Part shown: positions 5,928 to 23,685 of the stretch, piece after piece
Numbering within the stretch: position 1 is the stretch's first letter
How the letters are laid out: every line of letters starts with the position of its first letter
DNA from: Pyrodictium abyssi
Lineage (GTDB): Archaea > Thermoproteota > Thermoprotei_A > Sulfolobales > Pyrodictiaceae
Length of the DNA stretch: 32,000 nt
Direction of reading: 5' to 3'
Assembly (NCBI RefSeq): GCF_036323395.1
Contig: NZ_AP028907.1
Coordinates: forward strand, 180,001-212,000
Made by a program: the position numbers and the translations under genes
Notes under the pieces: generated by a model
Seen by the model: the letters and a program-made list of their open reading frames with translations, nothing else
Told to the model about the DNA's origin: nothing
Database searches by the model: none

Positions 5928-5962
5928 ACCCGTAGCGCACCCCCACGCCGCTGCCCTACCGC

Positions 5963-8362: not shown

Positions 8363-8437
8363 CCTCCAGGAGACACCAGACCGCCGAAAGAGGGTATATG
8401 CCGTATCGACGCCCCTACGATATAACGGTGACACAGC

Positions 8438-8800
8438 TTGATAGCACACGCGTATAGCGGCATGCTACCACCAAGCGACACAATATCGTTTATACAAGGT
8501 GCCGCACTCCTCGCCATAGTGTCAACTCTCATACTCTCAAGCCTCGACGTCCTGCCGGGCTTACGCAGAGTACTAGTGCTATCCATAGCAGTATTTCATC
8601 TTATTTATATCAAGGTCTACGCAGCCACATACGACCTACAGCTCGCCGTGAAGCCTCTCCTTGACGTCTTTATAGACGGGGACGGCCGTGTCTCTGCCAT
8701 GTTGGATCTCACGCAGGTAGCGGTAGCCAGTATACTGATAGACTACGTGTATACAAGGTACATACACTCCAAGAACAAGGAAAGGAATATAAACCCCTAG
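8438..8800 (+). CDS. Hypothetical small membrane protein
   Basis: 120-aa ORF with 2-3 hydrophobic segments. No recognisable family. It is the last host ORF before the tRNA. Confidence 0.4.
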   Translation: MIAHAYSGMLPPSDTISFIQGAALLAIVSTLILSSLDVLPGLRRVLVLSIAVFHLIYIKVYAATYDLQLAVKPLLDVFIDGDGRVSAMLDLTQVAVASILIDYVYTRYIHSKNKERNINP

Positions 8801-8849
8801 CCTACTATGGCACCCATCAACCTGGACGGCACCGCAGCTGCGCGGTAGT

Positions 8850-8927
8850 GCCGCGGTAGTATAGCCCGGCCAAGTATGCGGGCCTCTCGAGCCCGTGACC
8901 CGGGTTCAAATCCCGGCCGCGGCACCA
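8850..8927 (+). tRNA. tRNA-Glu (anticodon CTC), with encoded CCA
   Basis: Hand-folded cloverleaf. Acceptor gccgcgg/ccgcggc, D stem gtat/gtat (2 G-U pairs), anticodon stem cgggc/gcccg with loop c-t-CTC-g-a, T arm ccggg-ttcaaat-cccgg, discriminator a, then cca. Confidence 0.95.
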
Positions 8928-8933
8928 ACCCTC
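8878..8933 (+). repeat. attL: 56-bp direct repeat (3' part of tRNA-Glu plus 6 nt)
   Basis: gcgggcctctcgagcccgtgacccgggttcaaatcccggccgcggcaccaaccctc is identical base for base to 23391-23446. The flanking bases differ on both sides. Confidence 0.9.
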
Positions 8934-8992
8934 CCCATACCCCACACCCGCATCCCCTAATCCATATACCGTGTCACGGAGGCTTACTCTCT

Positions 8993-9313
8993 ATGGGGGT
9001 TCAAGTGCCGCCGCTTCTGACGTCGGTGAAAGTAGAGGCGAAGATAACGTACCAAGTCAAGAAGGGCAGATACCGTTATGCCTATTTGCACATTCCCGCG
9101 AGCATTAAAGCGCTAGTTGAGGGGCGTTACTTCAAGGTTGAAAAGAAGGGCAATGTGGTCATCTATAGAATTAGCGAGCCAGGACCCAATACCTATAAGC
9201 CCGTTAGATATGGTAAGAAGTCTATCTATATCAGGCTTCCTCTAGAAAATGTTATGGCAAAGAAGGCGATAATTGAGCTGCTTCCGGACGGCTTTGCTGT
9301 TCACCTTGTTTAA
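8993..9313 (+). CDS. Hypothetical protein (possibly AbrB-like beta-rich DNA binder)
   Basis: The track ORF 8876-9313 begins inside the tRNA, so the internal ATG at 8993 (MGVQVPP...) is preferred, giving 106 aa. Two segments (YLHIPASIKALVEGRYFKVEKKGNVVIY and IYIRLPLENVMAKKAIIELLPDGFAVHL) loosely resemble SpoVT/AbrB strands; this is a weak call. Confidence 0.5.
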   Translation: MGVQVPPLLTSVKVEAKITYQVKKGRYRYAYLHIPASIKALVEGRYFKVEKKGNVVIYRISEPGPNTYKPVRYGKKSIYIRLPLENVMAKKAIIELLPDGFAVHLV

Positions 9314-9324
9314 CTTACTCTAAG

Positions 9325-9345
9325 TGTCAGAGCCCTAGTCTGACA
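9325..9345. repeat. Palindrome P1: TGTCAGA-N7-TCTGACA
   Basis: TGTCAGAgccctagTCTGACA with perfect 7-bp arms, between convergent genes. Confidence 0.85.
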
Positions 9346-9346
9346 A

Positions 9347-9426
9347 TATTCGCTACAACCCTGTAGGGGAAACCAGGAGTGCCCTCGTGTCCTAGGGGGT
9401 TTCTCCCTTCTCGAGGAGAGGGAAAC
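9347..9426 (+). repeat. Hairpin elements H0 (degenerate, 9347-9373) and H1 (9399-9426)
   Basis: H0 is tattcgctacaaccctgtaggggaaac. H1 is GTTTCtcccttctcgaggagaggGAAAC (28 nt, near-perfect dyad centred on CTCGAG). Confidence 0.85.
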
Positions 9427-10167
9427 CTACTTCTTGCTCCATTGCACCTTGAGCACTGCTGACAGCTTGCCATAGTTCTTTGCCCGCTCGAGGACCTCAT
9501 TGTAGAACTCTGCATAGGATCGCCTTATCTTGGCGTACCTCTCATAGATTTGGTCGCCTTCACGGAAGAGCCAGAACTGTATTTTCTTTACTTCGCTGCT
9601 ATCCCAGTAGAACTTGCCGTCCTCCCGCTGCTTTCTCATGTAGACTTTTGCCTCACTCATCCACCCTCTTCTCTCATCATAGTGGACTTTCCAGACTCTG
9701 GCCTTGTAGCGGTAGACGTAGCCATTTTGTATTATGCCACGCGGCAAGTGCTTCTCGCTCGTCATAGTCATTATCATAAATCCTGTCCAGGTTCTCATAG
9801 TCTCGATATGTCCCATGATTGCAACGGAGAATGGATCGTAGGGATAGCGCTTGACTATCTCCATCCAGGGACCGGCATCATCCCATACAATTAGCGGATA
9901 TCGTATTCCTTCTTTTAGTGCTTGATCTACCTTTTCTTGAAGCTCCATTGGCGTAAATATCAGTAGTTCAAACACCTTATCCCAGTCTTGTAGAAGCTCA
10001 TGGGCTATCTTCAGAGCTAGCGTGGACTTACCGCTCCCCAGCGGCCCCTCTATTACCAGGAGGAACGCGTTTTGTTTCACTATTCCCTCAATGCAGAACT
10101 GACGTGCAAGCTTTCGCCTAACGTTTTGGCAGATGTGCTTAATCTCCCACATATAGGGGTCCCCCAT
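9427..10167 (-). CDS. P-loop NTPase (AAA-like; similar in size and layout to the DnaA-like ATPases of small crenarchaeal viruses)
   Basis: Walker A EGPLGSGKSTLAL and Walker B PLIVWDDAG; 246 aa. The family assignment beyond P-loop NTPase is from memory and not verified. Confidence 0.85.
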   Translation of the reverse strand: MGDPYMWEIKHICQNVRRKLARQFCIEGIVKQNAFLLVIEGPLGSGKSTLALKIAHELLQDWDKVFELLIFTPMELQEKVDQALKEGIRYPLIVWDDAGPWMEIVKRYPYDPFSVAIMGHIETMRTWTGFMIMTMTSEKHLPRGIIQNGYVYRYKARVWKVHYDERRGWMSEAKVYMRKQREDGKFYWDSSEVKKIQFWLFREGDQIYERYAKIRRSYAEFYNEVLERAKNYGKLSAVLKVQWSKK

Positions 10168-10178
10168 TATAAAGAGCC

Positions 10179-10577
10179 TTACCAGTTCTCTTCCTCTACC
10201 TTCTTCACTCTGGATAGCTGTACATTCTGTAGTATTCTCCAGGCTTTGCCAGCAACGATGGAGAGAATCTCCTTGACGCCGCTACGTTTCTTGGCCCTCT
10301 TGAGTATCAGGTAGTTGTAGATGAATCTCTTTAGCGTAGGATCCGGGATTGTGTCTGCTATAGTCTTCAGCATGGCTAAAGTGCGGATTTCTTTATCCGA
10401 AAGCTCGGATAATGTTATTACTGCCTTGCCTTTGGGCATCGCTAGCATCTTGACGGCTATCCTCTGTGCACCAAAGAGGTCCTTATCCTCTTCGAAGTCG
10501 AAGTCTTCATCGATTTCTATATCGAAGTCGAGGGGGTCCTCTTCCTCTGCTCTTTCTCTCCTCTTACGGGCCGGCAT
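10179..10577 (-). CDS. Hypothetical protein with a highly acidic N-terminus
   Basis: 132 aa (EEEDPLDFDIEIDEDFDFEEDKD...). Tightly packed between the membrane protein and the ATPase genes, with 4-nt and 11-nt gaps. Confidence 0.6.
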   Translation of the reverse strand: MPARKRRERAEEEDPLDFDIEIDEDFDFEEDKDLFGAQRIAVKMLAMPKGKAVITLSELSDKEIRTLAMLKTIADTIPDPTLKRFIYNYLILKRAKKRSGVKEILSIVAGKAWRILQNVQLSRVKKVEEENW

Positions 10578-10581
10578 AGTA

Positions 10582-11208
10582 TCACCTTGCAGGCGCTATG
10601 GATACGTGATAGCCTAGCATGGGTAGGATAAAGAACTCCATGATGAACGCGAGAGTCATTCCGACAAGTAGCATCACGATCTGCTCTCCCTTCGTGGGCT
10701 GTATCTTGCCGACAAGCTTCTCTATTGTTCTGCTCGCAAAGTAGTTCTTGAGCACTATCGGGTGTATCATTGACGGTCCTATCTTCGCTTTACGAAGCTC
10801 TTGCTGTATCTCTTCGTCGTCGGGATCTTCGAATTCATAGACTATGTTTCTGTCCGCATCAACTATGATTACCGGCTCTGCTCTCCTACAATTGCTGTCT
10901 TTGCAGAATATGTAAGGCTCCATAGGCGGTAGCTTGTAGAGTCTTGTAGGAGTTATCAGTTCTCCGCTAGCTGTTAGCTTGCCTATGGTTTTCATGAGGA
11001 TCTTGCCGTTTCTTAGGAGAACAGTTACTCTATCCCCCCGTGTCCGCTGGAACGTCTTTACCCTGTTCAGAGCTGCGTATGCTAGCCGCATGGTTTGGTC
11101 TATTCTGGCAGTAGTTGCTATGAAGAGAACGAGTGCGAAGAATGCTATAGTTATGAGCACGTAGAGGATGCTAAGCAAAGCATCTTGTGGCAGACTCACC
11201 GGGCTCAT
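10582..11208 (-). CDS. Hypothetical membrane protein (N- and C-terminal TM helices)
   Basis: 208 aa. TM segments LSILYVLITIAFFALVLFIATTA and IVMLLVGMTLAFIMEFFILPMLG. First gene of the minus-strand operon. Confidence 0.6.
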   Translation of the reverse strand: MSPVSLPQDALLSILYVLITIAFFALVLFIATTARIDQTMRLAYAALNRVKTFQRTRGDRVTVLLRNGKILMKTIGKLTASGELITPTRLYKLPPMEPYIFCKDSNCRRAEPVIIVDADRNIVYEFEDPDDEEIQQELRKAKIGPSMIHPIVLKNYFASRTIEKLVGKIQPTKGEQIVMLLVGMTLAFIMEFFILPMLGYHVSIAPAR

Positions 11209-11305
11209 TATAGCTCCCGTAGCTCTATTGATCGTCCCTTACCTTTTCTTCGCCCTTTCCAGCTTTCATAAGCTGATGCTAGCTCACAGTTGCTAAGTCG
11301 AGAAT

Positions 11306-11330
11306 GTTTCCCTAAAGATCTAGGGGAGAA
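11306..11330 (+). repeat. Degenerate hairpin element H2 abutting a start codon
   Basis: GTTTCcctaaagatctaggggaGAAt, with inner CCCTA/TAGGG arms as in H16. Its 3' end overlaps the first base of the ATG at 11330. Confidence 0.5.
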
Positions 11331-12079
11331 TGCGAGCAATAGCACCCATTGTTGCTGCTGCAATACTAGCACTCATAGCTGGTGCTGGCATTACTGCCTA
11401 TGTGCTTTCTCGGCCCGCAGCTGAGGCTCCTCTCGCAGCTATAGGTACTGCGAACATTATCGCAAGCGTGGAGACCAGGTATATTGTTGAATACATGGTG
11501 TTTGCGAGCGATAAGATAGATCTTAAGGTGTACTTGAACGGAACAGATGTTGCAGACATATTCATCCTGGTACCTACCTCGAGTTCAGAGTACATGGTTG
11601 TCTATAACAAGTACGACTATCAAAGCGGTACTCTACTTGAGTTGAACTATATGAAGGAGTTCATAGTTCTAGCCTGGAGAGATGGCTATGTAGATGCGAT
11701 AATCGTGGACATGGAGAACCCGGCACCCGGAGAGGTACGCCTTCACACGACACATCATCCCGATCCTATGAGCTTGACGCAATATGTGAAGGTTACAAAG
11801 CGCTGGTGGGACATTCTCTGGGAGGGTTTTGCGGTACTATTTGAAATGATGACTGCCATGAAGTTTGTAATAGATATTGTCGTGGCTATGCTGCCCTATG
11901 CCGGAGCTATGTGGTCTGTCTGGCTTGTCTCCGCCATTTCGAAAGCGCTTAGAGACATGAGCATTGAACCTCTGATAGACTTCTTCTATAAGAACTACCA
12001 AATAGTGAGAGGGATAGTATCGGCAGTTACGCAGATAGTGCTCAAGATAATAGACTTGATAACCGGGCCGGCAACATAA
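11330..12079 (+). CDS. Hypothetical membrane protein
   Basis: 249 aa. N-terminal TM (AIAPIVAAAILALIAGAGITAYVL), a central soluble domain and C-terminal hydrophobic helices. Confidence 0.65.
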   Translation: MRAIAPIVAAAILALIAGAGITAYVLSRPAAEAPLAAIGTANIIASVETRYIVEYMVFASDKIDLKVYLNGTDVADIFILVPTSSSEYMVVYNKYDYQSGTLLELNYMKEFIVLAWRDGYVDAIIVDMENPAPGEVRLHTTHHPDPMSLTQYVKVTKRWWDILWEGFAVLFEMMTAMKFVIDIVVAMLPYAGAMWSVWLVSAISKALRDMSIEPLIDFFYKNYQIVRGIVSAVTQIVLKIIDLITGPAT

Positions 12080-12083
12080 CGTT

Positions 12084-12175
12084 ATTTCGCCTACAGGATC
12101 TCTGATGAAATCTTGCTTTCTACATGATTTCGCTATCCTCGAGAAGGAGAAACATGTCAGACTGATACTCTGACA
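12084..12175 (+). repeat. Hairpin elements H3 (12084-12111) and H4 (12127-12153), plus palindrome P2 (12155-12175)
   Basis: H3 is ATTTCgcctacaggatctctgatGAAAT. H4 is ATTTCgctatcctcgagaaggaGAAAC. P2 is TGTCAGActgatacTCTGACA (perfect). They lie between convergent genes. Confidence 0.85.
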
Positions 12176-12195
12176 GTCTCTACGAAAAGAGGATA

Positions 12196-12300
12196 TCATG
12201 TAAGGATGTCTGCCACGAGCTTTGCAAGCCTGTAGCCCAAGTAGCCGGCAAATCCGGCAGCAAATGCGTAGATAACAACTTCAAAGGGCTCTAAGCTCAA
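12196..12300 (-). CDS. Possible 34-aa hydrophobic peptide
   Basis: Hand-found. A TTG at 12300 overlaps the end of the upstream ORF (12281-12589). Translation is (M)SLEPFEVVIYAFAAGFAGYLGYRLAKLVADILT plus a stop. The only support is TM-like composition and start/stop overlap. Confidence 0.2.
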   Translation of the reverse strand: MSLEPFEVVIYAFAAGFAGYLGYRLAKLVADILT

Positions 12301-12589
12301 CCTCCCGCACCTCCTCGAGCATTTGATTCCCTACTGCGATTCCCTTCTGCCTTAGTAATTCCATTAGTTTCCTTGCTCGAGGATCGTCCTCGGGCTCAAC
12401 CCATACTACTAGCCTGTATTCCTCTGGTGGATGTTCATCTTTTTCCACAAAGAGCCAGGCTGATAGCTTTATCATAAGCTGTGGCACGTTTCTACCTCTG
12501 AAAGTTCTCTGGGCAGCTATCGTTGAGCGTCTACGGTGTATTAAGGCAGCTCTTACGGTTATAGGAGGTGTGCGTGGCGGTCCTCCCAT
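12281..12589 (-). CDS. Hypothetical protein
   Basis: 102-aa ORF with a basic N-terminus and an acidic C-terminal half. No recognisable family. Confidence 0.5.
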   Translation of the reverse strand: MGGPPRTPPITVRAALIHRRRSTIAAQRTFRGRNVPQLMIKLSAWLFVEKDEHPPEEYRLVVWVEPEDDPRARKLMELLRQKGIAVGNQMLEEVREVELRAL

Positions 12590-12683
12590 TAATGTGTCCC
12601 TTTACTCCTGTTTAGAGCCCGGTAAGCCGTGTTAAGCTTGTCGAGCTAATGTAAGCTGGTTCTAGTTCGCGGCTCAAGTATAG

Positions 12684-12995
12684 TTGTTGTTGGAGTTAGA
12701 ACGCATGGAGATGGGTATGTCTTTTATGAAACGGGTGAAGGAGAAGCTAGCTAAAGTAGGTCAAGAGTTCAAGGCACGGGCTAAAGCGATAGCAGTAGCG
12801 ACCCTAGGCATAGGGACAACTTTGCTAACTAAGGTGGCGCACGCTCAGACAACCATAGATACCAGTAGCATGACGGAGATGATATCAGCATTCCTACCGA
12901 TAATAATGAGCTTATTCGCTATAATGATTCCGCTAATGTTCTTTGGTAAGATAATGGAGTTCTTTGAGAGGCTACTACGCAGCTTTGGCGGCTAA
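12684..12995 (+). CDS. Small two-TM membrane protein (candidate virion/envelope protein)
   Basis: The likely start is one of the ATGs at 12705-12726. It has a signal-like TM (AIAVATLGIGTTLLTKVAHA). Its C-terminal anchor MTEMISAFLPIIMSLFAIMIPLMFFGKIME is paralogous to the anchor of the next gene. Confidence 0.65.
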   Translation: MLLELERMEMGMSFMKRVKEKLAKVGQEFKARAKAIAVATLGIGTTLLTKVAHAQTTIDTSSMTEMISAFLPIIMSLFAIMIPLMFFGKIMEFFERLLRSFGG

Positions 12996-13000
12996 TATCG

Positions 13001-13693
13001 GTGATAAGTATGCTAAGGCGGCTACTAGCAGTCTTTTTGGTGGCTCTTATAGCATTCAGCACCGTAGCAGCGGCGCAGACAGAGGTGCTAGTTCCCAGCG
13101 ACGTTAGCGGTCCGATGTGGTGGGACTTCAATGCACAAACGCCTACGGTGATTAAGCTACTGCCGAACCTACCAGGACCAGCGCCTAATGCAAGCGACAA
13201 CCTGCGAATCGGCTTCGTAACACAGACAAAAGAGGCCGGCGGAACATACGAGGTCATAACAATCCGCTTCAAGATAAACGGCATGATGACTGTAGGCAGT
13301 CCTAGGTATGGTGTGCCGGACCAGGAAGTGGCCCAGTGGAGTAACAATGAGACTGTAAAGGTTGTCATATTTGGCAACACTATGGAGGTATATGTAGGCA
13401 GCACTAAGGTATGGAGCTATGAGGCGAGCGAAGAGATCCCGGACATAAACTACGTGTATGCGGATAGCGCTACATTCGGAGTGCCGGCATTCGAAGGCGG
13501 CGGATACATAAAGATATACGTGGATGAGGAGGAGCTAAACTCCATCCTAATAAACTATCAAATGCGGGAAAGCATGAACGCGACAATGGAGCTCTTCACA
13601 GCGTTTATGCCGCTGTTGATGGTATTCGCAATATTCGGAATGTTTATGAAGTTCATGGGCAAGATAATGAATACGTTGGGGAGAGCATTTTGA
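13001..13693 (+). CDS. Secreted protein with a C-terminal membrane anchor
   Basis: Signal peptide LLAVFLVALIAFSTVAAAQ, a beta-rich ectodomain of about 170 aa, and the anchor TMELFTAFMPLLMVFAIFGMFMKFMGKIMN. Confidence 0.7.
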   Translation: MISMLRRLLAVFLVALIAFSTVAAAQTEVLVPSDVSGPMWWDFNAQTPTVIKLLPNLPGPAPNASDNLRIGFVTQTKEAGGTYEVITIRFKINGMMTVGSPRYGVPDQEVAQWSNNETVKVVIFGNTMEVYVGSTKVWSYEASEEIPDINYVYADSATFGVPAFEGGGYIKIYVDEEELNSILINYQMRESMNATMELFTAFMPLLMVFAIFGMFMKFMGKIMNTLGRAF

Positions 13694-14742
13694 AACCCAT
13701 AGCTCTTTTTATAGCGGTTCTTCTCCCCCTAGGCCTAATCGTTACTGCGCATGCTGAGCAGAATCCTATAGTAGCTGTCTACTTCTACGCATGGTATGGT
13801 GAGGGATTAGGAGGGAGACATTGGAACGACTCAGCTTATACGCCCATCGTGGATGAGCCGCTGATAGGCTACTATAGCAGCCTAGACCCGGACACGATCG
13901 AGTGGCAGCTAAGGCTACTCAAGCAAGCAGGCATAGACGTACTCTTCATAAGCTGGTGGGGCCCCAATAGCTACGAAGATAGAGCAGCTAGACTGGTCTT
14001 CGAGAACCTGAAGCGCTTCGACCTGAAGGCCGCTATACTGGTCGAGCCCTATCTGGGAGGAGATCCTAGCCTCTACGACTACGAGTGGTGGCTTCAAGTA
14101 CTAGATTACATAAAGAAGAACTACATAGATAAGTATCCGAGCGTCTACTTCCGCTGGGAGGGCAAGCCGCTAGTACTAGCGTACAACCCCATAGGGATGA
14201 AGTGCCGACCAAACACAGACGAGTTCACGGTGAGGATAGTCGGCAACGACATAGACAATGCTGGCTACCAGGACTGGGACCTATGGCCAGACTACCTAGC
14301 CCCATGGACCACAGACAAGCCCATAGAGCTCAGAGTACGACAGGACGGCTACGTGGCCATAGCACCACGCTTCGACGACAGGGTATTCTGCGAGCTAGGC
14401 GTAAGGACTGGCTGTGATCAAAGGCTCTTGGATCCAAATTACACGCTTCAAGCCTACGTGAAACAATGGGAGTGGATACTTCAGCATAAGGATCAAGTAA
14501 GGCTCATAGCGATTTATAGTTGGAACGAATATCACGAGCGCAGCCAGATAGAGCCTCATTACGACGCAACAAAGCCGGAGCCGCTGGTTTACGATCCCTA
14601 TGCATTAACAAGAGCATACACCGAGAAACTGCGCGGTATCGAGTATAGTAAAGAGTACAAAGCTTTAGCCCAGGGTCTAGGACAGATAATGGGTGTTGCC
14701 TTCCTTGCAGGTGCGGCTGCGCAGTTTATCCGGCGGGCTTAG
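13690..14742 (+). CDS. GH99-like glycoside hydrolase (endo-alpha-mannosidase family), secreted and C-terminally anchored
   Basis: Signal peptide, then VYFYAWYG...HWN, IGYYSSLDPDTIEWQLRLLKQAGIDVLFISWWGP, LKAAILVEPY and IAIYSWNEYHERSQIE. From memory these parallel the human MANEA motifs FYYSWYG...HWN, LGSYSSRDPSVIETHMRQMRSASIGVLALSWYPP, HIEPY and ITSFNEWHEGTQIE. The TTG start overlaps the previous stop (TTGA). Confidence 0.8.
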   Translation: MKPIALFIAVLLPLGLIVTAHAEQNPIVAVYFYAWYGEGLGGRHWNDSAYTPIVDEPLIGYYSSLDPDTIEWQLRLLKQAGIDVLFISWWGPNSYEDRAARLVFENLKRFDLKAAILVEPYLGGDPSLYDYEWWLQVLDYIKKNYIDKYPSVYFRWEGKPLVLAYNPIGMKCRPNTDEFTVRIVGNDIDNAGYQDWDLWPDYLAPWTTDKPIELRVRQDGYVAIAPRFDDRVFCELGVRTGCDQRLLDPNYTLQAYVKQWEWILQHKDQVRLIAIYSWNEYHERSQIEPHYDATKPEPLVYDPYALTRAYTEKLRGIEYSKEYKALAQGLGQIMGVAFLAGAAAQFIRRA

Positions 14743-14768
14743 TTTCTCTCCTCGATCCCTGGCGAAAC
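14742..14768 (+). repeat. Hairpin element H5
   Basis: GTTTCtctcctcgatccctggcGAAAC (27 nt). It starts at the last base of the GH99-like stop codon. Confidence 0.8.
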
Positions 14769-14803
14769 ACCTTGCAGTCTCAGCTCTGATTCTCCATGCT
14801 GCC

Positions 14804-15028
14804 ATGGGGCTCTATCTGGCTTGTTTAGCAGCCATTTACGATTCTACTAATATGGGATTTGTTCTTCTCATAGCATACCCGGTGCTTACCGTTAGTCTCT
14901 GGATAACTAAGCCACATGCAATGTTAGCCTTCATGGTTCTAATTGCAGCTTCCCTAAGCTTTCTTAAGCTGTTATGGACTCGAAGGTATCATTTCAAGTT
15001 ATTTGTAAGGCGTATTCTAGGGGGCTAA
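14804..15028 (+). CDS. Small hydrophobic membrane protein
   Basis: The track ORF 14693-15028 overlaps the GH99 gene and H5. The internal ATG at 14804 gives a 74-aa protein with 2-3 TM segments (MGLYLACLAAIYDS...). Confidence 0.45.
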   Translation: MGLYLACLAAIYDSTNMGFVLLIAYPVLTVSLWITKPHAMLAFMVLIAASLSFLKLLWTRRYHFKLFVRRILGG

Positions 15029-15895: not shown

Positions 15896-15988
15896 GCTAT
15901 CGTGAGCTTTCTTCAGCTTCACTAAGCTCTCGGAGAATCTGGCTGTGGATAGCGTATTCCGCTACCTTTTCTCCACCCGCTGAGAGCC

Positions 15989-18040: not shown

Positions 18041-18058
18041 GCCCCTAGCTCTTTTTTC

Positions 18059-18107
18059 CTTTCCTCTTCTGCCTGTATGTGAAACTTGTCAGACTCTAGT
18101 TCTGACG
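18059..18107 (+). repeat. Degenerate hairpin H6 (18059-18085) plus palindrome P3 (18087-18107)
   Basis: H6 is cTTTCctcttctgcctgtatgtGAAAC. P3 is TGTCAGActctagtTCTGACg. Confidence 0.75.
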
Positions 18108-18191
18108 CTAGTTCTAAATCGGAATAAGAAGCAGAGGAGAAGCGGGCTCAGCGATTATCTCATCATTACCCGCTTTGCCCGGTGGCCCGCT

Positions 18192-19166
18192 ATGCCCCAG
18201 AGTAACACGTCTCGAAGAGATAGTAGAGAACCTAGCCCTGGTACTGCACAAGGACACTACCGGCCTAGCGAGCTCATTCTACGCTATATAGTTGAAGAGA
18301 AGGTCTCCTTCTTCCGGCTCGAGGAGATACGCTACTGGGCAAAGAAGCGCTACGGAGTAGACATAGACAGGAGGAGGCTCCATGATGCGGCAAAGAGGCT
18401 TACTGCTCGGGGCGTCTTCGAGAAGCCTTCGAGAGGCCTATATCATGTAAAAGACTGGGCAGCTGTCCACATGCTAGTTTCACTCTCCTCGAGAAAGAGA
18501 AACAATGAAGCCCTTGAGGGCCAAGAAGGGATTCACCTACAGGCTAGAGGTGAAAACGTCCTTGAGCCGCGTCAGAACATGAGTCGGACGGACGCGGGCG
18601 CGGCGGGGCGGGCTGGGCGGCGGGTGTCTGAGCGGTGTTCTGACAGGTTGCGGCGGTTTGTGCCTGTTCTCGCTACGGAGGAGGGGTGTTGGACGGTTCT
18701 TCGCTGGCATCTTAATGCGCGTCGGGAGAGGGTTTGGGACTGGCTGTGGGATCTCTTCGAGAGGGCGGTTGCTTTTCGGGAGCTATTCTCTTGGATTGTT
18801 AGATGGCTTAGGGAGGAGCTGCACCGTATGGGGGCGTCTAAGTACGAGATCCGGAGGCGGGTTAGGCGGGTTCTGCAGCGTGTTAGGAGGCTGCTTTCGA
18901 GGGTTAGGCCCGTGATTGGTGCTCATTATAGGAAGAGGTTCTGGCCCCTGGGGGATCTTCTCCGCTTGTTTGGTGCTGAGGAGAGGCTGCCCAGGATGGA
19001 GTTCGGGGTAGAGCTTTGGGCTTGCGGTGAGGGGGCGGTGGAGGCTGCGCGGGAGGGCTACGAGGTCTTTGGGAGCCAGGACGTGTATACTCCGAACGCA
19101 TACAAGCATAATACTCCGGAGCATGCTCAGTATAGGCTGCGGCTGCGTTATCATCCTAGGCACTAG
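18192..19166 (+). CDS. Hypothetical protein: N-terminal winged-helix-like domain plus an Arg/Trp-rich C-terminal half
   Basis: 324 aa. LILRYIVEEKVSFFRLEEIRYWAKKRYGVDIDRRRLHDAAKRLTARGVFEKPSRGLYHV looks like a wHTH. Composition changes sharply after about 18590. Contains hairpin H7 in frame. Confidence 0.65.
   Translation: MPQSNTSRRDSREPSPGTAQGHYRPSELILRYIVEEKVSFFRLEEIRYWAKKRYGVDIDRRRLHDAAKRLTARGVFEKPSRGLYHVKDWAAVHMLVSLSSRKRNNEALEGQEGIHLQARGENVLEPRQNMSRTDAGAAGRAGRRVSERCSDRLRRFVPVLATEEGCWTVLRWHLNARRERVWDWLWDLFERAVAFRELFSWIVRWLREELHRMGASKYEIRRRVRRVLQRVRRLLSRVRPVIGAHYRKRFWPLGDLLRLFGAEERLPRMEFGVELWACGEGAVEAAREGYEVFGSQDVYTPNAYKHNTPEHAQYRLRLRYHPRH
18477..18503 (+). repeat. Hairpin element H7 (intragenic)
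   Basis: GTTTCactctcctcgagaaagaGAAAC (27 nt), in frame within 18192-19166, where it encodes VSLSSRKRN. Confidence 0.75.
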
Positions 19167-19167
19167 G

Positions 19168-19260
19168 ATTTCGCTTCTTAGCCTGTATGCGAAACGCTAG
19201 GGGACGCTAGGTTTCTCCTGTCGACAACACTGCGAAATCTGTCAGAGCGGGGCTCTGACA
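19168..19260 (+). repeat. Hairpin elements H8 (19168-19195) and H9 (19211-19238), plus palindrome P4 (19240-19260)
   Basis: H8 is ATTTCgcttcttagcctgtatgcGAAAC. H9 is GTTTCtcctgtcgacaacactgcGAAAT. P4 is TGTCAGAgcggggcTCTGACA (perfect). Confidence 0.85.
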
Positions 19261-19326
19261 AGGTAAGTGGATTAGCTTCGCTTTGCACCGGCTTACGGTT
19301 TAGTAGCTGTTATTCGGTCATCGGGC

Positions 19327-20457
19327 TTGTCAGAGTTGGGCTCTGACGCTGGTTTTGTAGCCTTCGAGGGGCAAATAGGAAGGTGGGTGCTCTTTGTGGA
19401 GGGGAGGGTTAAGGTTGCTAGGCTGGTGGAGATAGACGGTAGGCCCTACGTAGTGATAGACGGCGCGTTGATCCCCATTGAGGTTTCGCCCGGGAGCTCG
19501 CAGGCGAAACAGGAGAGGCCGGAGCTTCGCTTTGAGCTGAGTGAAGAGGTCCTCGAGCGCTACCGTAGGTGGCTTCCCAGCGAGCAACGAAGTTACCGAG
19601 CCAGGGACCCGGAAACCATAGAGAAGTATATCAGCTATTTAAAGAAGTTCTATGAGTGCAGTAATGGGGTTATATCGCCTGAGACGATTATGAAGTGTGT
19701 TACGAATAAGCACTATGTGAGGGCGTTAAGAGCGTTCGTGGAGATGTTGAGGTACTATGGAGAGGTGTCGCGGCACCTGGCTCTTGAGATCCTTGAGAGG
19801 CTTAGGTGGAGCCGGAATGATAGGATTGGCGAGGATATTGTTCCGGTTTCCCGGGTGCTCGAGAGCATAGCATTCGTCGAGGAGGAAGGGCTTCCGCTGT
19901 ACCAGCTGCTCTATAGGGCTATGCTCTATAGTGGCGGTATCCGGCTGGAGCAGTTCTTCGAGCTAGTGCCCTACGAGGATCATTACTGGCTGTGGAGGGG
20001 AGCGGAGCCCCGGCCCTTTGGCAGGTATAACGCTGTTAAGGCTCTCGAGGACCGTGGGGTAGCCTCGAAGCCTGTGGACCATATATGGCTGCCTGAGGAG
20101 GTTTACCGGGGGCTTAGGGGGCTTGATCCTGATTTCCTTCCGAAGCCGGGAGCGGCTAGGAAGTTCTATAGCCGGCATAAGCTGGTAGGCCCGACATTGA
20201 TTCGTAGCTTCTGCTGGCAAGTTGCGAAGTTTCTCCTGCCCGACAAGAATCTTGCTAGGATGCTGCAGGGGAGGCTTGGAGAGCTTAAGCGCGAGGTATC
20301 CGCGGGGAGCTATGACGCGCTCCGTTATCAGCTCGATCAGCTATACCCGCTTTGGATGCGCTTCGTGGACAGGCTCTACGAGGCGGCCAGGCGTGGTAAG
20401 CCTCTCGAGGAGGCGCGGAGGATAGTCGCTGAGTACCGCTTGCCCCTCCCACCTTAG
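19327..20457 (+). CDS. int: Tyrosine recombinase (integrase), intact
   Basis: 376 aa. Core-binding-like helices (IEKYISYLKKFYE..., ALRAFVEMLRYYG). Candidate catalytic residues are LYSGGIRLEQ (Arg I), TLIRSFCWQ (Arg II), MLQGRLG and SAGSYDAL (Tyr). The exact start is uncertain: TTG 19327 lies inside palindrome P5. Confidence 0.85.
   Translation: MSELGSDAGFVAFEGQIGRWVLFVEGRVKVARLVEIDGRPYVVIDGALIPIEVSPGSSQAKQERPELRFELSEEVLERYRRWLPSEQRSYRARDPETIEKYISYLKKFYECSNGVISPETIMKCVTNKHYVRALRAFVEMLRYYGEVSRHLALEILERLRWSRNDRIGEDIVPVSRVLESIAFVEEEGLPLYQLLYRAMLYSGGIRLEQFFELVPYEDHYWLWRGAEPRPFGRYNAVKALEDRGVASKPVDHIWLPEEVYRGLRGLDPDFLPKPGAARKFYSRHKLVGPTLIRSFCWQVAKFLLPDKNLARMLQGRLGELKREVSAGSYDALRYQLDQLYPLWMRFVDRLYEAARRGKPLEEARRIVAEYRLPLPP
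19328..19348. promoter_or_regulatory. Palindrome P5 overlapping the annotated integrase start
   Basis: TGTCAGAgttgggcTCTGACg. Same family as P1-P4, positioned at the 5' end of int. Confidence 0.6.
19483..19510 (+). repeat. Hairpin element H10 (intragenic, in int)
   Basis: GTTTCGCCcgggagctcgcaGGCGAAAC (28 nt, 8-bp perfect arms, central GAGCTC), in frame, encoding VSPGSSQAKQ. Confidence 0.8.
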
Positions 20458-20459
20458 CG

Positions 20460-20487
20460 GTTTCGCCTAGGAGCTCGTTGGTGAAAC
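20460..20487 (+). repeat. Hairpin element H11
   Basis: GTTTCgcctaggagctcgttggtGAAAC (28 nt). It starts 3 nt after the integrase stop. Confidence 0.85.
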
Positions 20488-20494
20488 TGGGGCT

Positions 20495-20575
20495 GGGCCG
20501 CGGGGATGATGAGTACGGCAGGATCGGATCCGTGAAGAGCGGACTTAACGCTGACCCTCCCGGGACCCGCGGCCC
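20495..20575 (+). ncRNA. Dual-guide C/D box sRNA candidate (core 20506-20554)
   Basis: C box ATGATGA (20506-12), 12-nt guide gtacggcaggat, D' cgga, 3-nt linker, C' gtgaaga (20532-38), 12-nt guide gcggacttaacg, D box CTGA (20551-54). This is the canonical archaeal 7-12-4-3-7-12-4 layout. A perfect 9-bp outer helix (gggccgcgg 20495-503 with ccgcggccc 20567-75) encloses it. Both guides are complementary to conserved 16S rRNA segments (see findings). Confidence 0.6.
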
Positions 20576-20753
20576 TCTGGTTTACCCTACTCTATACTAA
20601 GAGGTATATGGGTTGCGCCCGGCTATACTATAGTGTACTCGAGGGCCCGGCTGCCCCTCTCGACGGGTCGGGGACCCGGGGTGAAGGGATGAGCCGGCCC
20701 GGGAGGCGGGGATTGTCGTGAACCGCCTCCTTCAATGCTCTGACACTCCTAGG

Positions 20754-20876
20754 GTTTCCCCTTCTCGATCCCTGGGGAAACCGGGCCCTGGCGGGGGGTT
20801 TCGCCTTCCTCGAGGAGGGTGAAACCGGCCCTTCCCCTGGAGGGTAGGGTTTCGCTTACAGGCCTGTATGTGAAAT
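20754..20876 (+). repeat. Hairpin elements H12 (20754-20781), H13 (20798-20825) and H14 (20849-20876)
   Basis: H12 is GTTTCcccttctcgatccctgggGAAAC. H13 is GTTTCgccttcctcgaggagggtGAAAC. H14 is GTTTCgcttacaggcctgtatgtGAAAT. A TCTGACA half-site lies at 20739-20745. Confidence 0.85.
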
Positions 20877-20920
20877 AGTGTCGGCTTCCTCTTTCTGTCC
20901 ACCAAAAACAATAAGTAGGT

Positions 20921-20932
20921 GTAACTAGTTAC
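20921..20932. promoter_or_regulatory. Perfect 12-bp palindrome GTAACTAGTTAC upstream of the small-gene operon (candidate operator)
   Basis: It lies between an A-rich TATA-like stretch (aaaaacaataag, about 20904-20915) and the GTG/ATG starts at 20949/20958. Confidence 0.4.
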
Positions 20933-20948
20933 GACTACTTGGCTGCGG

Positions 20949-21269
20949 GTGTGGGGTATGGGGAGTCTACGGGAGGCTCTCATCTTCCTCGCAAATAAGC
21001 CTCAAGCGCTACGTCTTCTCCGCGAGGCTGCGAGGTACAAGGCTTCAAAGGGTAAGCCGCCGTACACTAGAGAGCTTCTCAAGCTGGCAGCCAACGGGGA
21101 CCGCGGCTACAGTATGCGGCTGCTAGAGGAGCTGCAGGCGCTGGGGCTTCTGCGGCGCTACCGGGATTATCTTAGCGATAAGCTGCGCATACCTGTTGTC
21201 CGCAACGATCCCACACCTTTGGCTCACAAGGTTCTAGCACTCTTCGAGGAGGAGGATGAAAATGCCTAG
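20949..21269 (+). CDS. Winged-helix DNA-binding protein
   Basis: 106 aa (GTG 20949 or ATG 20958). TRELLKLAANGDRGYSMRLLEELQALGLLRR looks like an HTH plus wing. Acidic tail. Confidence 0.65.
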   Translation: MWGMGSLREALIFLANKPQALRLLREAARYKASKGKPPYTRELLKLAANGDRGYSMRLLEELQALGLLRRYRDYLSDKLRIPVVRNDPTPLAHKVLALFEEEDENA

Positions 21270-21708
21270 GCCTCCACGGCTTGATAAGGTAATAGCGTTT
21301 GCCCATAAGCTGGCTAGCGATCTTGAGGTAGGGTATCGGGAGCTTGCCGGGATTCGTGGGGAGCTTCTGCGCGTCTCTGAGCTTCTGCGGGATGTCGAGG
21401 TTCTGGAGGCTAGTGTGATCGAGAAGAGTAGGAATGGCTCGGTGTACAGGGTTCTGCAGGTGAAGAGGCCTGGGACGGGCTTTTTCGAGGGAGGCGTGCT
21501 GTCTGTCTATGTTACCCGTAAGCCCGAGCTTGGCGATCTTGTAGTGAGGCTTGTTCATCTCCGTAATGTCTATGCTGAGTGGGTTAAGGCTACTATTAGC
21601 TTGCTTGACGCGTTGGAGAGGACTCCTAGCTTGCTTGAGGAATACAAGCGGCTTGTTTCTCCTACAGGATCTCCGGCGAAACAGGAGGTGAGGGCTCGTG
21701 GATCCTAG
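21256..21708 (+). CDS. Hypothetical protein
   Basis: 150 aa. The start overlaps the previous gene by 14 nt. Contains H15 in frame near its 3' end. Confidence 0.6.
   Translation: MKMPRPPRLDKVIAFAHKLASDLEVGYRELAGIRGELLRVSELLRDVEVLEASVIEKSRNGSVYRVLQVKRPGTGFFEGGVLSVYVTRKPELGDLVVRLVHLRNVYAEWVKATISLLDALERTPSLLEEYKRLVSPTGSPAKQEVRARGS
21655..21682 (+). repeat. Hairpin element H15 (intragenic)
   Basis: GTTTCtcctacaggatctccggcGAAAC (28 nt), in frame, encoding VSPTGSPAKQ, and followed by aggagg. Confidence 0.8.
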
Positions 21709-21847
21709 GGAGCTTGCGGAGATTGAGCAGGAGCTGAGAGAGGCTCGAGAGTTCTTCGCAGAGCGGGGGTACTGGCTCATGGTCTGGTACATAGACGATA
21801 CACTGAGGCTAATAGAGAGGATGAAGGAGGGGAGGAGTAATGGCTCT
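21698..21847 (+). CDS. Possible 49-aa ORF
   Basis: Hand-found. GTG 21698 overlaps the preceding stop region. Translation is VDPRELAEIEQELREAREFFAERGYWLMVWYIDDTLRLIERMKEGRSNGS. Its stop overlaps the RHH gene start (ATG 21840). Support comes only from operon packing. Confidence 0.25.
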
Positions 21848-22049
21848 TAGAACGATCACCGTTAAGCTCGATGACGAGATTGTATCTCTTCTCGACGACA
21901 TCTATAGGAAGCTTGGCTACAATTACCGCAGCGATGTAATAAGAGAAGCACTGGAGGATTGGCTGCGGCGGCATGGATTCAAGGTTAACCTCAGCGTTTC
22001 TCGACCAAGGCATAATGATAGAGGTCTAGTGTTTGAGGTGGAGGTGTAG
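21840..22049 (+). CDS. Ribbon-helix-helix (CopG/Arc/MetJ-type) transcriptional regulator
   Basis: MALRTITVKLDDEIVSLLDDIYRKLGYNYRSDVIREALEDWLRRHG has the classic beta-strand, helix, helix pattern. Confidence 0.8.
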   Translation: MALRTITVKLDDEIVSLLDDIYRKLGYNYRSDVIREALEDWLRRHGFKVNLSVSRPRHNDRGLVFEVEV

Positions 22050-22052
22050 ACC

Positions 22053-22313
22053 ATGACCAGGCTATATCTCTGCGGGTGCTGGCTCGAGGTTAAGGACTGC
22101 AGCTTGCACAAGGCATTGCTGAGGAGTCTTGCCGACATCTACGAGCATGACGTGCTACTCATGGAGGGTGCGCCGGTCTCCATCGACTGTAGGCGGCTGG
22201 CCGCGGACTTCGAAGAGTTCCTGCACGACTATGGTGCCCGGCACTGCCGCGTCGAGCCCGTCGATCCGGCTGAGTGGCGCCGCCCCGAGGAGACGCTACT
22301 TCCGACATTCTAG
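22053..22313 (+). CDS. Hypothetical Cys-containing protein
   Basis: 86 aa. Starts 3 nt after the RHH stop. No family recognised. Confidence 0.55.
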   Translation: MTRLYLCGCWLEVKDCSLHKALLRSLADIYEHDVLLMEGAPVSIDCRRLAADFEEFLHDYGARHCRVEPVDPAEWRRPEETLLPTF

Positions 22314-22326
22314 GGGGTGGGTGGCT

Positions 22327-22755
22327 ATGCCGGTCTTCCTTCTAGCTAATGGCCGCCGGGTTACGCTCTCGAGGGCCCTAGTAGAGCGGGTTGTTACTAC
22401 GAGGCTCTCTAACTGCTTCTCTCCGCAGTGCTACATGTCGAAGGAGGAGTACCTAGCGTGCATAGAGTGGATCACAGGGAGGAGAAGCGAGGCTCCAGGG
22501 CACGCGCGTACATGCATCTACCACATGCTGTTCTACAGCGAGAACCTGGTTCTAACAAACTACATGTTCTTGAGGTCGCTGCGCGACCCAGCGGCGCCAG
22601 AGTACCTAGACTCTATGCTGAGGCTACTCGAGGAGATACGCCGACTAGCAGAGGAGGCCTATCAGCACCTAGCAGCTAGCCGCTATAGCGAGGCTCAGAG
22701 ACTGGCCATCGAGATTCTAGACAAGCTCCTAAGATGGGGAATAGACCCATGGTAG
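22327..22755 (+). CDS. Hypothetical protein
   Basis: The track ORF 22129-22755 overlaps the previous gene out of frame. The internal ATG at 22327 (MPVFLLANGRR...) gives 142 aa with a helical C-terminus. Confidence 0.6.
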   Translation: MPVFLLANGRRVTLSRALVERVVTTRLSNCFSPQCYMSKEEYLACIEWITGRRSEAPGHARTCIYHMLFYSENLVLTNYMFLRSLRDPAAPEYLDSMLRLLEEIRRLAEEAYQHLAASRYSEAQRLAIEILDKLLRWGIDPW

Positions 22756-22758
22756 GGG

Positions 22759-23019
22759 GTGTCTTGCATGTCGGCTGACTGCCGCCGTTGCCGGTTCTTT
22801 ATCCCCCTTGAGAGGATGGATCATGATAGCATAGTGAGGGCTGAGAAGTGGCTTCAATGGATGCAGAAGAACGGGAAGAGGCAGGGTCATAGGATCCTGG
22901 GATGGTGCGGTAGGTATGAGAGGCCGGTAACCTACTATGTTGGCCGCTGCACGGGCTTCTCCCCCTATGCCGATAGACCGGCGGTGAAGAGTATACTCGA
23001 CTATCTTCGGGGCAGCTAG
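22759..23019 (+). CDS. Small Cys-rich (putative zinc-binding) protein
   Basis: 86 aa with CRRC...GWCGRYERPVTYYVGRC. GTG start 3 nt after the previous stop. Confidence 0.55.
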   Translation: MSCMSADCRRCRFFIPLERMDHDSIVRAEKWLQWMQKNGKRQGHRILGWCGRYERPVTYYVGRCTGFSPYADRPAVKSILDYLRGS

Positions 23020-23040
23020 CTCTTTCTTATTAAGAGGAGG

Positions 23041-23127
23041 TGTCAGAGTTCTACTCCGGCATCTTGTTTCTCCCTAGATCCTGTAGGGGAAACTCTCGGG
23101 TTTCTCCCTTCTCGAGGAGGGTGAAAC
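23041..23127 (+). repeat. Degenerate palindrome P6 (23041-23061), plus hairpins H16 (23066-23093) and H17 (23100-23127)
   Basis: P6 is TGTCAGAgttctacTCcGgCA. H16 is GTTTCtccctagatcctgtagggGAAAC. H17 is GTTTCtcccttctcgaggagggtGAAAC. Confidence 0.85.
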
Positions 23128-23132
23128 GCTGC

Positions 23133-23300
23133 TCAACGTAACTTCCTTAGGCATAGGCGCCCTCTTCCATCTATCTCCCAGATTAGATAGTCGCCTTTGC
23201 TCAGCTTTGTACGTTCCACGAACTCTTTGGGTAGATGTATGAAGAGGACTTCTCCATGTGGGGTCTTCTTTGCCTGAACCCTGACCAGGCGGGGCTGCAT
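23133..23300 (-). CDS. SpoVT/AbrB-family small DNA-binding protein
   Basis: Too short for the ORF track. Hand translation from the ATG at 23300 gives MQPRLVRVQAKKTPHGEVLFIHLPKEFVERTKLSKGDYLIWEIDGRGRLCLRKLR (55 aa). IHLPKEFVE...KGDYLIWEIDGRGRLCL is a typical AbrB swapped-hairpin pattern. Confidence 0.7.
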   Translation of the reverse strand: MQPRLVRVQAKKTPHGEVLFIHLPKEFVERTKLSKGDYLIWEIDGRGRLCLRKLR

Positions 23301-23310
23301 ACTCTCACGG

Positions 23311-23328
23311 TCTGTACAGTCTGTACAG
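23311..23328. promoter_or_regulatory. Tandem TCTGTACAG x2 (each containing the palindrome CTGTACAG) just upstream of the AbrB-like gene
   Basis: tctgtacagtctgtacag lies 11-28 nt upstream of the ATG at 23300 on the gene's strand, which is an operator-like position. Confidence 0.4.
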
Positions 23329-23390
23329 TGATACTATGTAAGCCTCTCTAGCCATGGTAGCGCTTGCTAGAGGTCCTTTTCGGCTGGGAC

Positions 23391-23446
23391 GCGGGCCTCT
23401 CGAGCCCGTGACCCGGGTTCAAATCCCGGCCGCGGCACCAACCCTC
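23391..23446 (+). repeat. attR: 56-bp direct repeat (partial tRNA-Glu 3' copy)
   Basis: Identical to 8878-8933. It lacks the tRNA 5' half, so it is not a functional tRNA. Confidence 0.9.
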
Positions 23447-23685
23447 AATACCCTCCCCCTTGTTCTGGCCATTCCTCCGCCCAGGTACGGGGCTGCCGAC
23501 GTGATAGCCCTGTTACACTGGTTTGAGCTTTGTAGGAGAGCACGTGCCTGTAACGGCACCTAGGGCTTGGATAGACCCGTCATACAGTACATATTGTACA
23601 TCCAGCGTATATCGTCTTTGGCTACAGTCTTTTAAAGAAGGGTGGAGAACGCAACTACTGTGGCTATGAGGGCCTCTGTGTGTCT

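Follow-up and report, generated by a model that had tools for sequence, protein, structure and literature searches.

What is the 14.5-kb block of DNA that lies between a complete tRNA-Glu gene and a second copy of its 3' part in Pyrodictium abyssi, how did it get there, and does it still carry what it would need to leave? We analysed a window of 32,000 nucleotides (assembly GCF_036323395.1, contig NZ_AP028907.1, positions 180,001 to 212,000); coordinates are those of the window unless another locus is named. A preliminary description of this stretch, made from its letters and open reading frames (ORFs), had proposed an integrated virus- or plasmid-like element. Our results point to an integrated provirus that resembles the Aeropyrum virus APOV1 and was made by site-specific recombination, a reading to which we assign a probability of about 0.85.

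The borders of the element are defined by an exact 56-nt direct repeat, which a repeat scan of the window found at 8878-8933 and 23391-23446, with the two copies 14,513 nt apart. The second-longest repeat family in the 32-kb window is 33 nt long and imperfect, and the 56-nt repeat far exceeds what chance produces in a sequence of this length. ARAGORN and Rfam (RF00005, 60 bits) placed a tRNA-Glu(CTC) gene on the plus strand at 8850-8927, and the repeat runs from tRNA position 29, in the anticodon stem, to the encoded CCA and continues for 6 nt (ACCCTC). The left copy, at the attachment site attL, completes the tRNA gene. The right copy, attR, is a 3' fragment to which Rfam gives only 30.2 bits (23370-23430; the cut-off is 29), a marginal match to part of a tRNA. 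The element measures 14,457 bp between the repeats and 14,513 bp with one att copy included, and the guanine-plus-cytosine (GC) content of its interior is 51.5% as compared to 54% and 59% in the flanks. Both flanks carry housekeeping genes: L1, L11, Spt5, FtsY, prefoldin, eIF6, S19e, and Nep1 on the left, and DUF1122, a rubrerythrin-like gene, peroxiredoxin, FKBP, RNA cyclase, and NOG1 on the right. The preliminary description had given the same repeat coordinates and spacing, the same extent within the tRNA gene, and ribosomal and housekeeping genes outside the repeats, and all of this was confirmed.

Related genomes were retrieved with the left-flank Nep1 protein as a query, which led to L012, a metagenome-assembled genome (MAG) that carries the label Pyrodictium delaneyi and shares 91.4% DNA identity with window 2-8942. 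In L012, the sequence homologous to window 23447-23629 (77% identity) comes immediately after Nep1, a 120-aa gene, and tRNA-Glu, and in a three-way alignment the site carries attL-type sequence to the left of the core and attR-type sequence to the right. The tRNA-Glu locus of L012 is an empty, uninterrupted attB. As a separate observation, the two genomes carry the DUF1122 region just right of the insertion site in opposite orientations (window 23908-24406, L012 11586-12085), and the L012 contig ends there.

The predicted attP junction was found independently in L011 (JGI 3300034049), a linear metagenomic contig of 6.75 kb with 72-86% DNA identity to the element. Window segments 15798-20457, 20887-21328, and 23128-23444 are colinear with this contig, which then passes unbroken into 8878-9666 (86% identity), and the alignment shows the right arm of the element, the same core, and the left arm as contiguous sequence. 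The contig shows an attP-type junction in a close relative of the element. The preliminary description had called for a search for an empty tRNA-Glu site in relatives and for the circular junction (23390/att/8934). The empty site exists in L012, and the right end, att, and left end adjoin one another in L011, although not as a closed circle. It had also named two outcomes that would speak against it: the same 14.5-kb content without repeats at a non-tRNA locus, or a repeat that proved to be an assembly duplication with neither an empty site nor a circular junction ever found. Because attB and the attP junction were both found, these two objections are answered in favor of a mobile element, and the claim of integration is borne out.

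We then compared the gene content with known viruses and plasmids. Neither the phage nor the plasmid collection gave a nucleotide match when the entire element was searched with megablast. In an all-against-all comparison with APOV1 (L001), ten homologous and largely syntenic genes were detected at 23-57% amino acid identity (E values from 1.6e-6 to 0), so that 10 of the 21 APOV1 ORFs have syntenic homologues in the element, the small orf12 and orf13 among them. The suspicion that this might be APOV1 or a relative thus holds for the relative and fails for APOV1 itself. APOV1 is an isolated virus that forms particles (ICTV profile), and its genome of 13,769 bp integrates in tRNA-Leu with a partitioned SSV-type integrase, orf21. 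Members of Guttaviridae and Betaguttavirus have circular double-stranded DNA genomes of about 14-20 kb, an ovoid or droplet-shaped enveloped virion, and a 10.5-kDa major capsid protein (ICTV profile); the text of the profile ties this protein to no particular ORF. The 14.5 kb of the element fit this size range, with circularity deduced from att and L011 only. A second provirus of this kind, L002 (GCA_027080775.1), occupies 14.2 kb in a Desulfurococcales MAG. Judged by its genes, the element is a distant, guttavirus-like relative of APOV1 and a tRNA-integrating provirus; among the papers open to search, none linked Pyrodictium abyssi to a provirus. The features are as follows.

8850-8927, plus strand: host tRNA-Glu(CUC) gene, complete at the left junction and identical to the tRNA at the uninterrupted site of L012.
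8878-8933, plus strand: attL, the left 56-nt core; exact repeat, with the core common to the L011 attP and the L012 attB.
8990-9313, plus strand: gene of about 107 aa that comes first on the right side of att; only sub-threshold Pfam matches; tblastn match to L011 6093-6407.
9427-10167, minus strand: DnaA-like AAA+/P-loop ATPase; phrog_5484 at 1.9e-23; match to APOV1 orf19 with 31% identity and 96% length coverage.
10179-10577, minus strand: homologue of APOV1 orf18-132 (blastp 45%, E 8e-40).
10582-11208, minus strand: membrane protein, homologue of APOV1 orf17-201 (blastp 25%, E 2e-15).
11330-12079, plus strand: membrane protein, homologue of the C-terminal part only of APOV1 orf16-391 (40% over 67 aa).
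12281-12589, minus strand: homologue of APOV1 orf13-94 (blastp 37%, E 1.5e-13).
12684-12995, plus strand: small hydrophobic protein, homologue of APOV1 orf12-85 (57% over 47 aa, E 5e-14).
13001-13693, plus strand: protein with a signal peptide and a C-terminal transmembrane segment, both read from the translation; homologue of APOV1 orf11-222 (23%, E 1.6e-6).
13690-14742, plus strand: secreted GH99-like glycoside hydrolase (PF16317 at 3.8e-15, above cut-off), homologue of APOV1 orf10-284 (50%, E 2e-86).
15029-15895, plus strand: basic protein, partial homologue of APOV1 orf15-259 (52% over 73 aa); phrog_38579 at 5e-20.
15989-18040, plus strand: 683-aa secreted protein, homologue of APOV1 orf9-678 (55% over 672 aa, E 0); matched at 100% identity by a Pyrodictium abyssi protein.
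18192-19166, plus strand: 324-aa protein just upstream of the integrase gene (int); 71% identity to L011, 36-54% (partial) to the loci L005 and L009.
19327-20457, plus strand: intact tyrosine recombinase (integrase); the longest ORF encodes 376 aa, and the start annotated by NCBI at 19396 gives 353 aa.
20458-20948, no strand: non-coding region of 491 nt with four sites of the GTTTC-N18-GAAAC type and AT-rich palindromes.
20949-21708, plus strand: two small genes of 106 and 150 aa (68% and 51% identity to L011).
21840-22049, plus strand: ribbon-helix-helix (RHH, CopG-type) DNA-binding protein (PF01402 at 7.6e-7, above cut-off; repressor phrog_876 at 7e-5).
22053-23019, plus strand: three small genes of no recognised family, encoding 86 aa, about 142 aa (start 22327), and a Cys-rich protein of 86 aa.
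23133-23300, minus strand: AbrB/SpoVT-type DNA-binding protein with the MazE_antitoxin fold (PF04014 at 1.2e-6; 28.8 bits, cut-off 24.7).
23391-23446, plus strand: attR, the right 56-nt core, a tRNA 3' fragment without a functional 5' half; the DNA 3' of it matches the sequence that follows tRNA-Glu in L012.
9399-23127, no strand: 15 GTTTC-N17/18-GAAAC sites with at most one mismatch (motif scan).

The gene content agrees with the preliminary description, which had listed the P-loop ATPase, the RHH gene, the AbrB gene, and a block of signal-peptide and transmembrane proteins; the block spans 11330-18040. Pfam, PHROG, and NCBIfam scans of the element detected no conjugation, relaxase, or plasmid Rep genes. 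The ATPase, which also has weaker matches to SSV and ATV homologues, belongs to a DnaA-like type that is a signature common to fusello-, gutta-, and bicaudaviruses. The membrane protein encoded at 11330-12079 has a further homologue at L002 4789-5637 (40% over 252 aa), the product of 12684-12995 is a candidate virion or capsid protein, and the orf15-like gene stands at a different place than in APOV1 and L002. Beside attL, the 8990-9313 gene is the best conserved of all as compared to L011 (93% amino acid identity; 51-81% for the other full-length gene matches). Its product looks, by eye, like a tandem AbrB-like protein with two beta-rich half-domains. The gene lies just downstream of the host tRNA-Glu in the same orientation and could be expressed in the lysogen. 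At the other end, the three genes in 22053-23019 had no Pfam, PHROG, or NCBIfam match and no counterpart in L011, where the RHH gene directly abuts the AbrB gene that they separate from it in the window.

The preliminary description had named a tyrosine recombinase between the repeats, and we asked how well this assignment holds. The protein encoded at 19327-20457 has no Pfam, NCBIfam, or PDB sequence match of its own. With tblastn it found nothing in phages and only noise in plasmids, and sequence and profile searches against PDB likewise gave only noise. It does match phrog_5127, an "integrase" (6.9e-9), and the UniRef entry for the annotated 353-aa version is labelled "Integrase SSV1 C-terminal domain-containing protein." The ORF also matches a protein encoded on the P. 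abyssi contig that supplies the identical 683-aa protein. The family comprises 12 sequences in a word-indexed search and 19 at E<=1e-3 in an exhaustive search of 1.84 billion cluster representatives, and R206, K248, R293, R316, and Y329 are invariant in the 12-member alignment, down to 25% identity. For an AlphaFold2 (AF2) model (mean predicted local distance difference test, pLDDT, of 77.7), the best PDB neighbors in Foldseek were XerA, lambda Int, and XerH; the probability was 0.96-0.98 for XerA (5hxy) and the best lambda Int (5j0n), 0.77-0.87 for other lambda Int structures, and about 0.1 for XerH. The catalytic Arg-Arg-(His/Arg/Trp)-Tyr set is found, as is the two-domain fold of the superfamily, although the E values and TM scores of the structural matches are weak. 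The assignment therefore stands on PHROGs, profile comparison, relatives, and the structure model, though not on a Pfam or NCBIfam match of its own, and R206, R293, R316, and Y329 are the predicted catalytic residues.

As for the lineage of this enzyme, hhalign of the family profile against SSV-type integrases (SSV1 D335, APOV1 orf21, L002, and L003) gave a probability of 95.8% and an E value of 8e-9 over 240 columns, in which R206, R293, R316, and Y329 pair with SSV1 R211, R281, R304, and Y314. Experiments have shown Y314 to be the nucleophile of SSV1 Int (PMC8371274). The same profile aligned to the pNOB8 integrase with a probability of 0.3%. The pNOB8 enzyme is a PF00589 protein; two distant members of the integrase family, P0033 (30 bits) and P0034 (77 bits), pass PF16795, while the integrase itself falls below the PF16795 threshold and has no PF00589 match. 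At the signature position, SSV-type enzymes carry K (KxxR) and pNOB8-type enzymes Y (YxxR) (PMC8371274). The integrase keeps the R, R, and Y of the PF16795 R...KxxR...Y signature and has T290 in place of K, and the pNOB8-type R...YxxR...Y signature is not found. The hhalign result and the transitive Pfam matches suggest that the enzyme is related to the SSV-type (PF16795) lineage and not to the integrase of pNOB8.

The topology of integration tells a different story from the enzyme. The attP lies in a spacer of about 200 nt between the AbrB gene (23133-23300, minus strand) and the 8990-9313 gene. An ORF across attP was considered and rejected, since after reconstruction of the circle the att core was crossed by no ORF that exceeds the 8990 gene in length. 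With attP outside it, int is not disrupted by integration, and it is indeed internal and full-length, unlike the split int of L002; the earlier view of an intact integrase gene with att outside it was thus upheld. The classification of the event as pNOB8-type rather than SSV-type is correct for this topology but not for the enzyme. A 2021 review equates PF16795 families with suicidal integrases of single origin (PMC8371274). Our profile search returned about 40 PF16795 integrases of 420-447 aa. The two of these that were inspected, on the chromosomal contigs L018 (9856-11326) and L019 (9835-11272), are intact proteins of 423-441 aa whose genes lie 66-88 nt downstream of tRNA-Arg(TCG); no second att sites were found within 10 kb, and the L018 island (on a 1.37-Mb contig) also carries BrxL-type (BREX-like) genes. 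As a lead, non-partitioned integrases of the PF16795 lineage are probably commoner than the summary in that review suggests.

The distribution of homologues and of GC divides the element in two. At about 18.1 kb the GC content steps from 48.9% (8934-18100) to 56.0% (18101-23390); it is 55.5% in APOV1 and 60.9% in the L002 provirus. The left module of about 9.2 kb appears to be an APOV1-like (Guttaviridae, Betaguttavirus-like) replication and virion module, and its structural genes may come from a lineage of lower GC. The right module of about 5.3 kb comprises the 324-aa protein, the integrase, the non-coding region, small genes of winged helix-turn-helix (wHTH), RHH, and Zn types, AbrB, and attP. 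A similar order recurs elsewhere: int, RHH, AbrB, and attP in L011, and int, AbrB, and a tRNA-Asp(GTC) 3' fragment in L005 and L009, where the fragment starts at the same anticodon-stem position. A homologue of the 324-aa protein, with a weak AbiEi_4/wHTH match in L011, always lies just upstream of int in these three loci, and the AbrB gene, 79-82% identical to its counterparts in L005, L009, and L011, always adjoins att in elements with this integrase. The complete tRNA-Asp genes that ARAGORN called by int in L005 and L009 were rejected, because their 5' halves are element sequence conserved between both loci; the calls are best read as attR-type fragments.

The sequence available upstream of int in L005 and L009 (about 10 kb and about 3 kb) contains no APOV1-like core genes, which argues that the 324-aa/int/AbrB/attP module moves between backbones. 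Within the element, a split SSV-type int or a DUF5658 remnant was looked for and rejected, as neither is present. Combined with the change in GC near 18.1 kb, this absence supports the idea that an SSV-type integration module was replaced in a guttavirus-like backbone.

A short dispersed motif appears to belong to the same module. Of exact GTTTC-N17/18-GAAAC sites (27-28 nt), 0.13 would be expected and 10 were counted, none of them outside the element. Allowing one mismatch brings the count to 15 within the element and 1 in the flanks (about 1.5 expected). The 15 sites start at 9399, 12127, 14742, 18059, 18477, 19168, 19211, 19483, 20460, 20754, 20798, 20849, 21655, 23066, and 23100. Many lie 0-50 nt past stop codons or between convergent genes, and clusters flank int and fill 20458-20948. 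The sites also flank int in L011 (3298-6502) and L005 (3968-11216), and none were found in APOV1, L002, or L003; they seem to go with the int/AbrB module and not with the APOV1-like backbone. In 26 copies the outer TTTC/GAAA and a C-G pair at position 7 are invariant, and the center is a variable mini-palindrome (CTCGAG, GAGCTC, GGATCC, and GTCGAC among the examples). A continuous RNA hairpin or terminator was rejected, since positions 8-11 are not complementary above control. A dimeric protein encoded by the element probably uses the motif as its operator, with a spacing of two helical turns between the half-sites. In L005 (4053-11249) and L009 (1609-4704), another perfect palindrome, GGTTGTACCCGGGGTACAACC, is present in up to 9 copies.

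The 491-nt region at 20458-20948 is presumably a control or origin region; a structured RNA was rejected there (fold z = -1.2, no Rfam family). Close to its right end lies one arm of a 25-nt inverted repeat (24 of 25 positions), which pairs 8931-8955, to the right of the att core, with 20941-20965, at the start of the 106-aa gene. L011 has an equivalent inverted pair (6016-6033 and 4745-4762), and the repeat may be a shared site for a regulator or a directionality factor.

The largest product of the left module, the 683-aa secreted protein, was modelled with AF2 (pLDDT 79.5, predicted template modelling score 0.82). The model has a C-terminal beta-sandwich, and Foldseek neighbors, which cover only the C-terminal ~170 residues, include the sugar-binding proteins Fbs1, CBM61, CBM4, and CBM27 and phage tail-fibre, tailspike, and gpJ proteins. 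The C-terminal domain of the model resembles a carbohydrate-binding module or a phage tail fibre. Given these neighbors and the presence of a signal peptide, the protein is a putative virion attachment protein at the host surface and may work on surface glycans alongside the secreted GH99-like enzyme. Its family has 22 members in a collection of 5.8 billion proteins. Named members come from Pyrodictium, Aeropyrum, Desulfurococcaceae, Thermosphaera, and Staphylothermus, and one distant member (29% identity) is labelled Nitrososphaeria. In IMG/VR, the single 683-aa query gave no match, and an alignment query recovered APOV1 only.

Taken together, these data suggest the following course of events. 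The circular genome would carry an attP, a copy of tRNA-Glu from position 29 to CCA plus a few nucleotides, between the AbrB and 8990 genes. The tyrosine recombinase, with Y329, would exchange strands between attP and attB inside the 56 nt of identity, which would regenerate tRNA-Glu at attL and leave the 3' fragment at attR. With int whole in the lysogen, the element could in principle excise itself. Several points weigh against this reading. The attP-type junction of L011 sits on a linear 6.75-kb contig and not in a closed circle; only about half of the element ORFs have APOV1 counterparts; and the capsid protein has no more than a candidate ORF. As for the integrase, it lies below every Pfam and NCBIfam threshold and lacks a PDB sequence match, the residue that is K in SSV-type and Y in pNOB8-type enzymes is T or S in its family (T290 in the integrase itself), and its Foldseek hits are weak (E of 5e-3 at best, TM score of 0.2-0.4). 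Recombinase activity, virion production, the structural and attachment roles, and regulation through the GTTTC...GAAAC sites are predictions.

Might the element then be a cryptic or defective provirus, or a domesticated island, that no longer excises or forms particles? In favor of this, the three small genes in 22053-23019 are missing from the closest relative, the orf15-like gene has moved as compared to APOV1 and L002, and the integrase is very divergent. However, the 56-nt repeats are still perfect, whereas the att copies of L002 are 99% identical, all ten core genes and int are full-length against their homologues, the catalytic residues are intact, and a relative with 72-86% identity was sampled in attP form. 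No decay is seen in the direct repeat or in the core ORFs, which are all open, and the perfect repeats, the full-length core genes, and the relative caught with its attP junction speak for an element that is recent or active. We regard a cryptic state as unlikely. An integrative plasmid or other non-viral element, in the sense of pNOB8 or pSSVi/pSSVx, would account for the intact integrase, which is as in classical pNOB8-type integration, for the int/AbrB module on non-APOV1 backbones in L005 and L009, and for the lack of a known function in most ORFs. Such an origin is very improbable given ten genes homologous to those of the particle-forming APOV1, secreted and membrane proteins included, the lack of detected conjugation, relaxase, and plasmid Rep genes, and an integrase unrelated to that of pNOB8.

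It could also be argued that another integrase made the insertion in trans and that the 376-aa ORF is an inactive relic, as it has no Pfam match, carries T290 at the KxxR/YxxR position, and lies 2.9 kb from attP. This explanation has very little in its favor once the conservation of R206, K248, R293, R316, and Y329 over 12 homologues, down to 25% identity, is considered. In addition, four independent elements (the window, L011, L005, and L009) pair int and AbrB with a tRNA-Glu or tRNA-Asp fragment that has the same tRNA start, and the element has no other recombinase. An assembly duplication behind the repeat, an a priori possibility only, can practically be set aside: the repeated sequence matches the tRNA 3' part exactly, independent assemblies show the empty target and the attP junction, and the composition shifts at the borders. 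An integrated APOV1-like provirus accounts for these observations together.

What is new here is a provirus of the APOV1 group in Pyrodictium with a replaced integration module; the kind itself, a tRNA-integrating guttavirus-like provirus, was already known. To our knowledge, APOV1 is the only sequenced guttavirus, and we know of no virus isolated from Pyrodictiaceae. The element and about 20 metagenomic relatives of the 683-aa protein add comparative depth to the APOV1 family and define a conserved core of ten genes. They also extend the host range from Aeropyrum to Pyrodictium, which is among the most thermophilic cultivable genera (the growth optimum of Pyrodictium abyssi is near 97-100 C), and provide a second representative with a cultivable host. 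A bolder proposal would combine a rare, undescribed, non-suicidal branch of SSV/PF16795 integrases with attP outside the gene, a guttavirus backbone with a swapped, self-excisable module that has its own AbrB/wHTH regulators and GTTTC-N17/18-GAAAC operator, and an inducible Pyrodictium virus; we put this combination at slightly under even odds. If it is true, then together with the intact integrases next to tRNA-Arg in L018 and L019 it would mean that self-partitioning is not general in the lineage. Set against the "suicidal" integrases of its lineage, the integrase is a natural comparison case. A pair of related virus backbones that differ in the survival of int makes the effect of partitioning on excision and lysogen stability testable, and the sequenced strain is one in which induction could be tried. 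The practical value is modest, as a candidate integration module for hyperthermophile genetics.

Among known systems, APOV1 is alike in size class (13.8 and 14.5 kb), in its insertion into a tRNA gene, in its hyperthermophilic Desulfurococcales host, and in that neither genome carries a DNA polymerase. The two differ in the target, tRNA-Leu in APOV1 and tRNA-Glu in the element, and in the host family, which for the element is Pyrodictiaceae. The APOV1 genes orf1-8, orf14, orf20 (DUF5658), and the SSV-type integrase orf21 have no counterpart in the element, where they are replaced by the 5.3-kb module with its non-partitioned integrase, AbrB, RHH, and GTTTC...GAAAC sites; orf15 is also placed differently. 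The core of the L002 provirus, also in a tRNA gene, is closer to the element than that of APOV1 (ATPase 57%, large protein 60%, GH99 48%). However, L002 resides in tRNA-Leu(TAA), its 71-nt att splits an SSV-type int into int(N) and int(C) as in APOV1, it has a DUF5658 gene like APOV1, and it lacks the GTTTC...GAAAC sites.

The SSV-type integrases are the closest characterised relatives of the enzyme by profile comparison and share the tRNA 3' part as the target. In APOV1, SSV1, and L002 the gene is split by integration, in contrast to the element, which has no int(N)/int(C) partition, no D-335 N-terminal domain, and T or S in place of K. With pNOB8-type systems, the element shares an intact int gene, att outside it, and an att core of the ~40-60 bp that overlap the tRNA in this type (PMC8371274), but no detectable sequence relation. 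Thus, the element appears to join the integration topology of one type to an enzyme related to the other.

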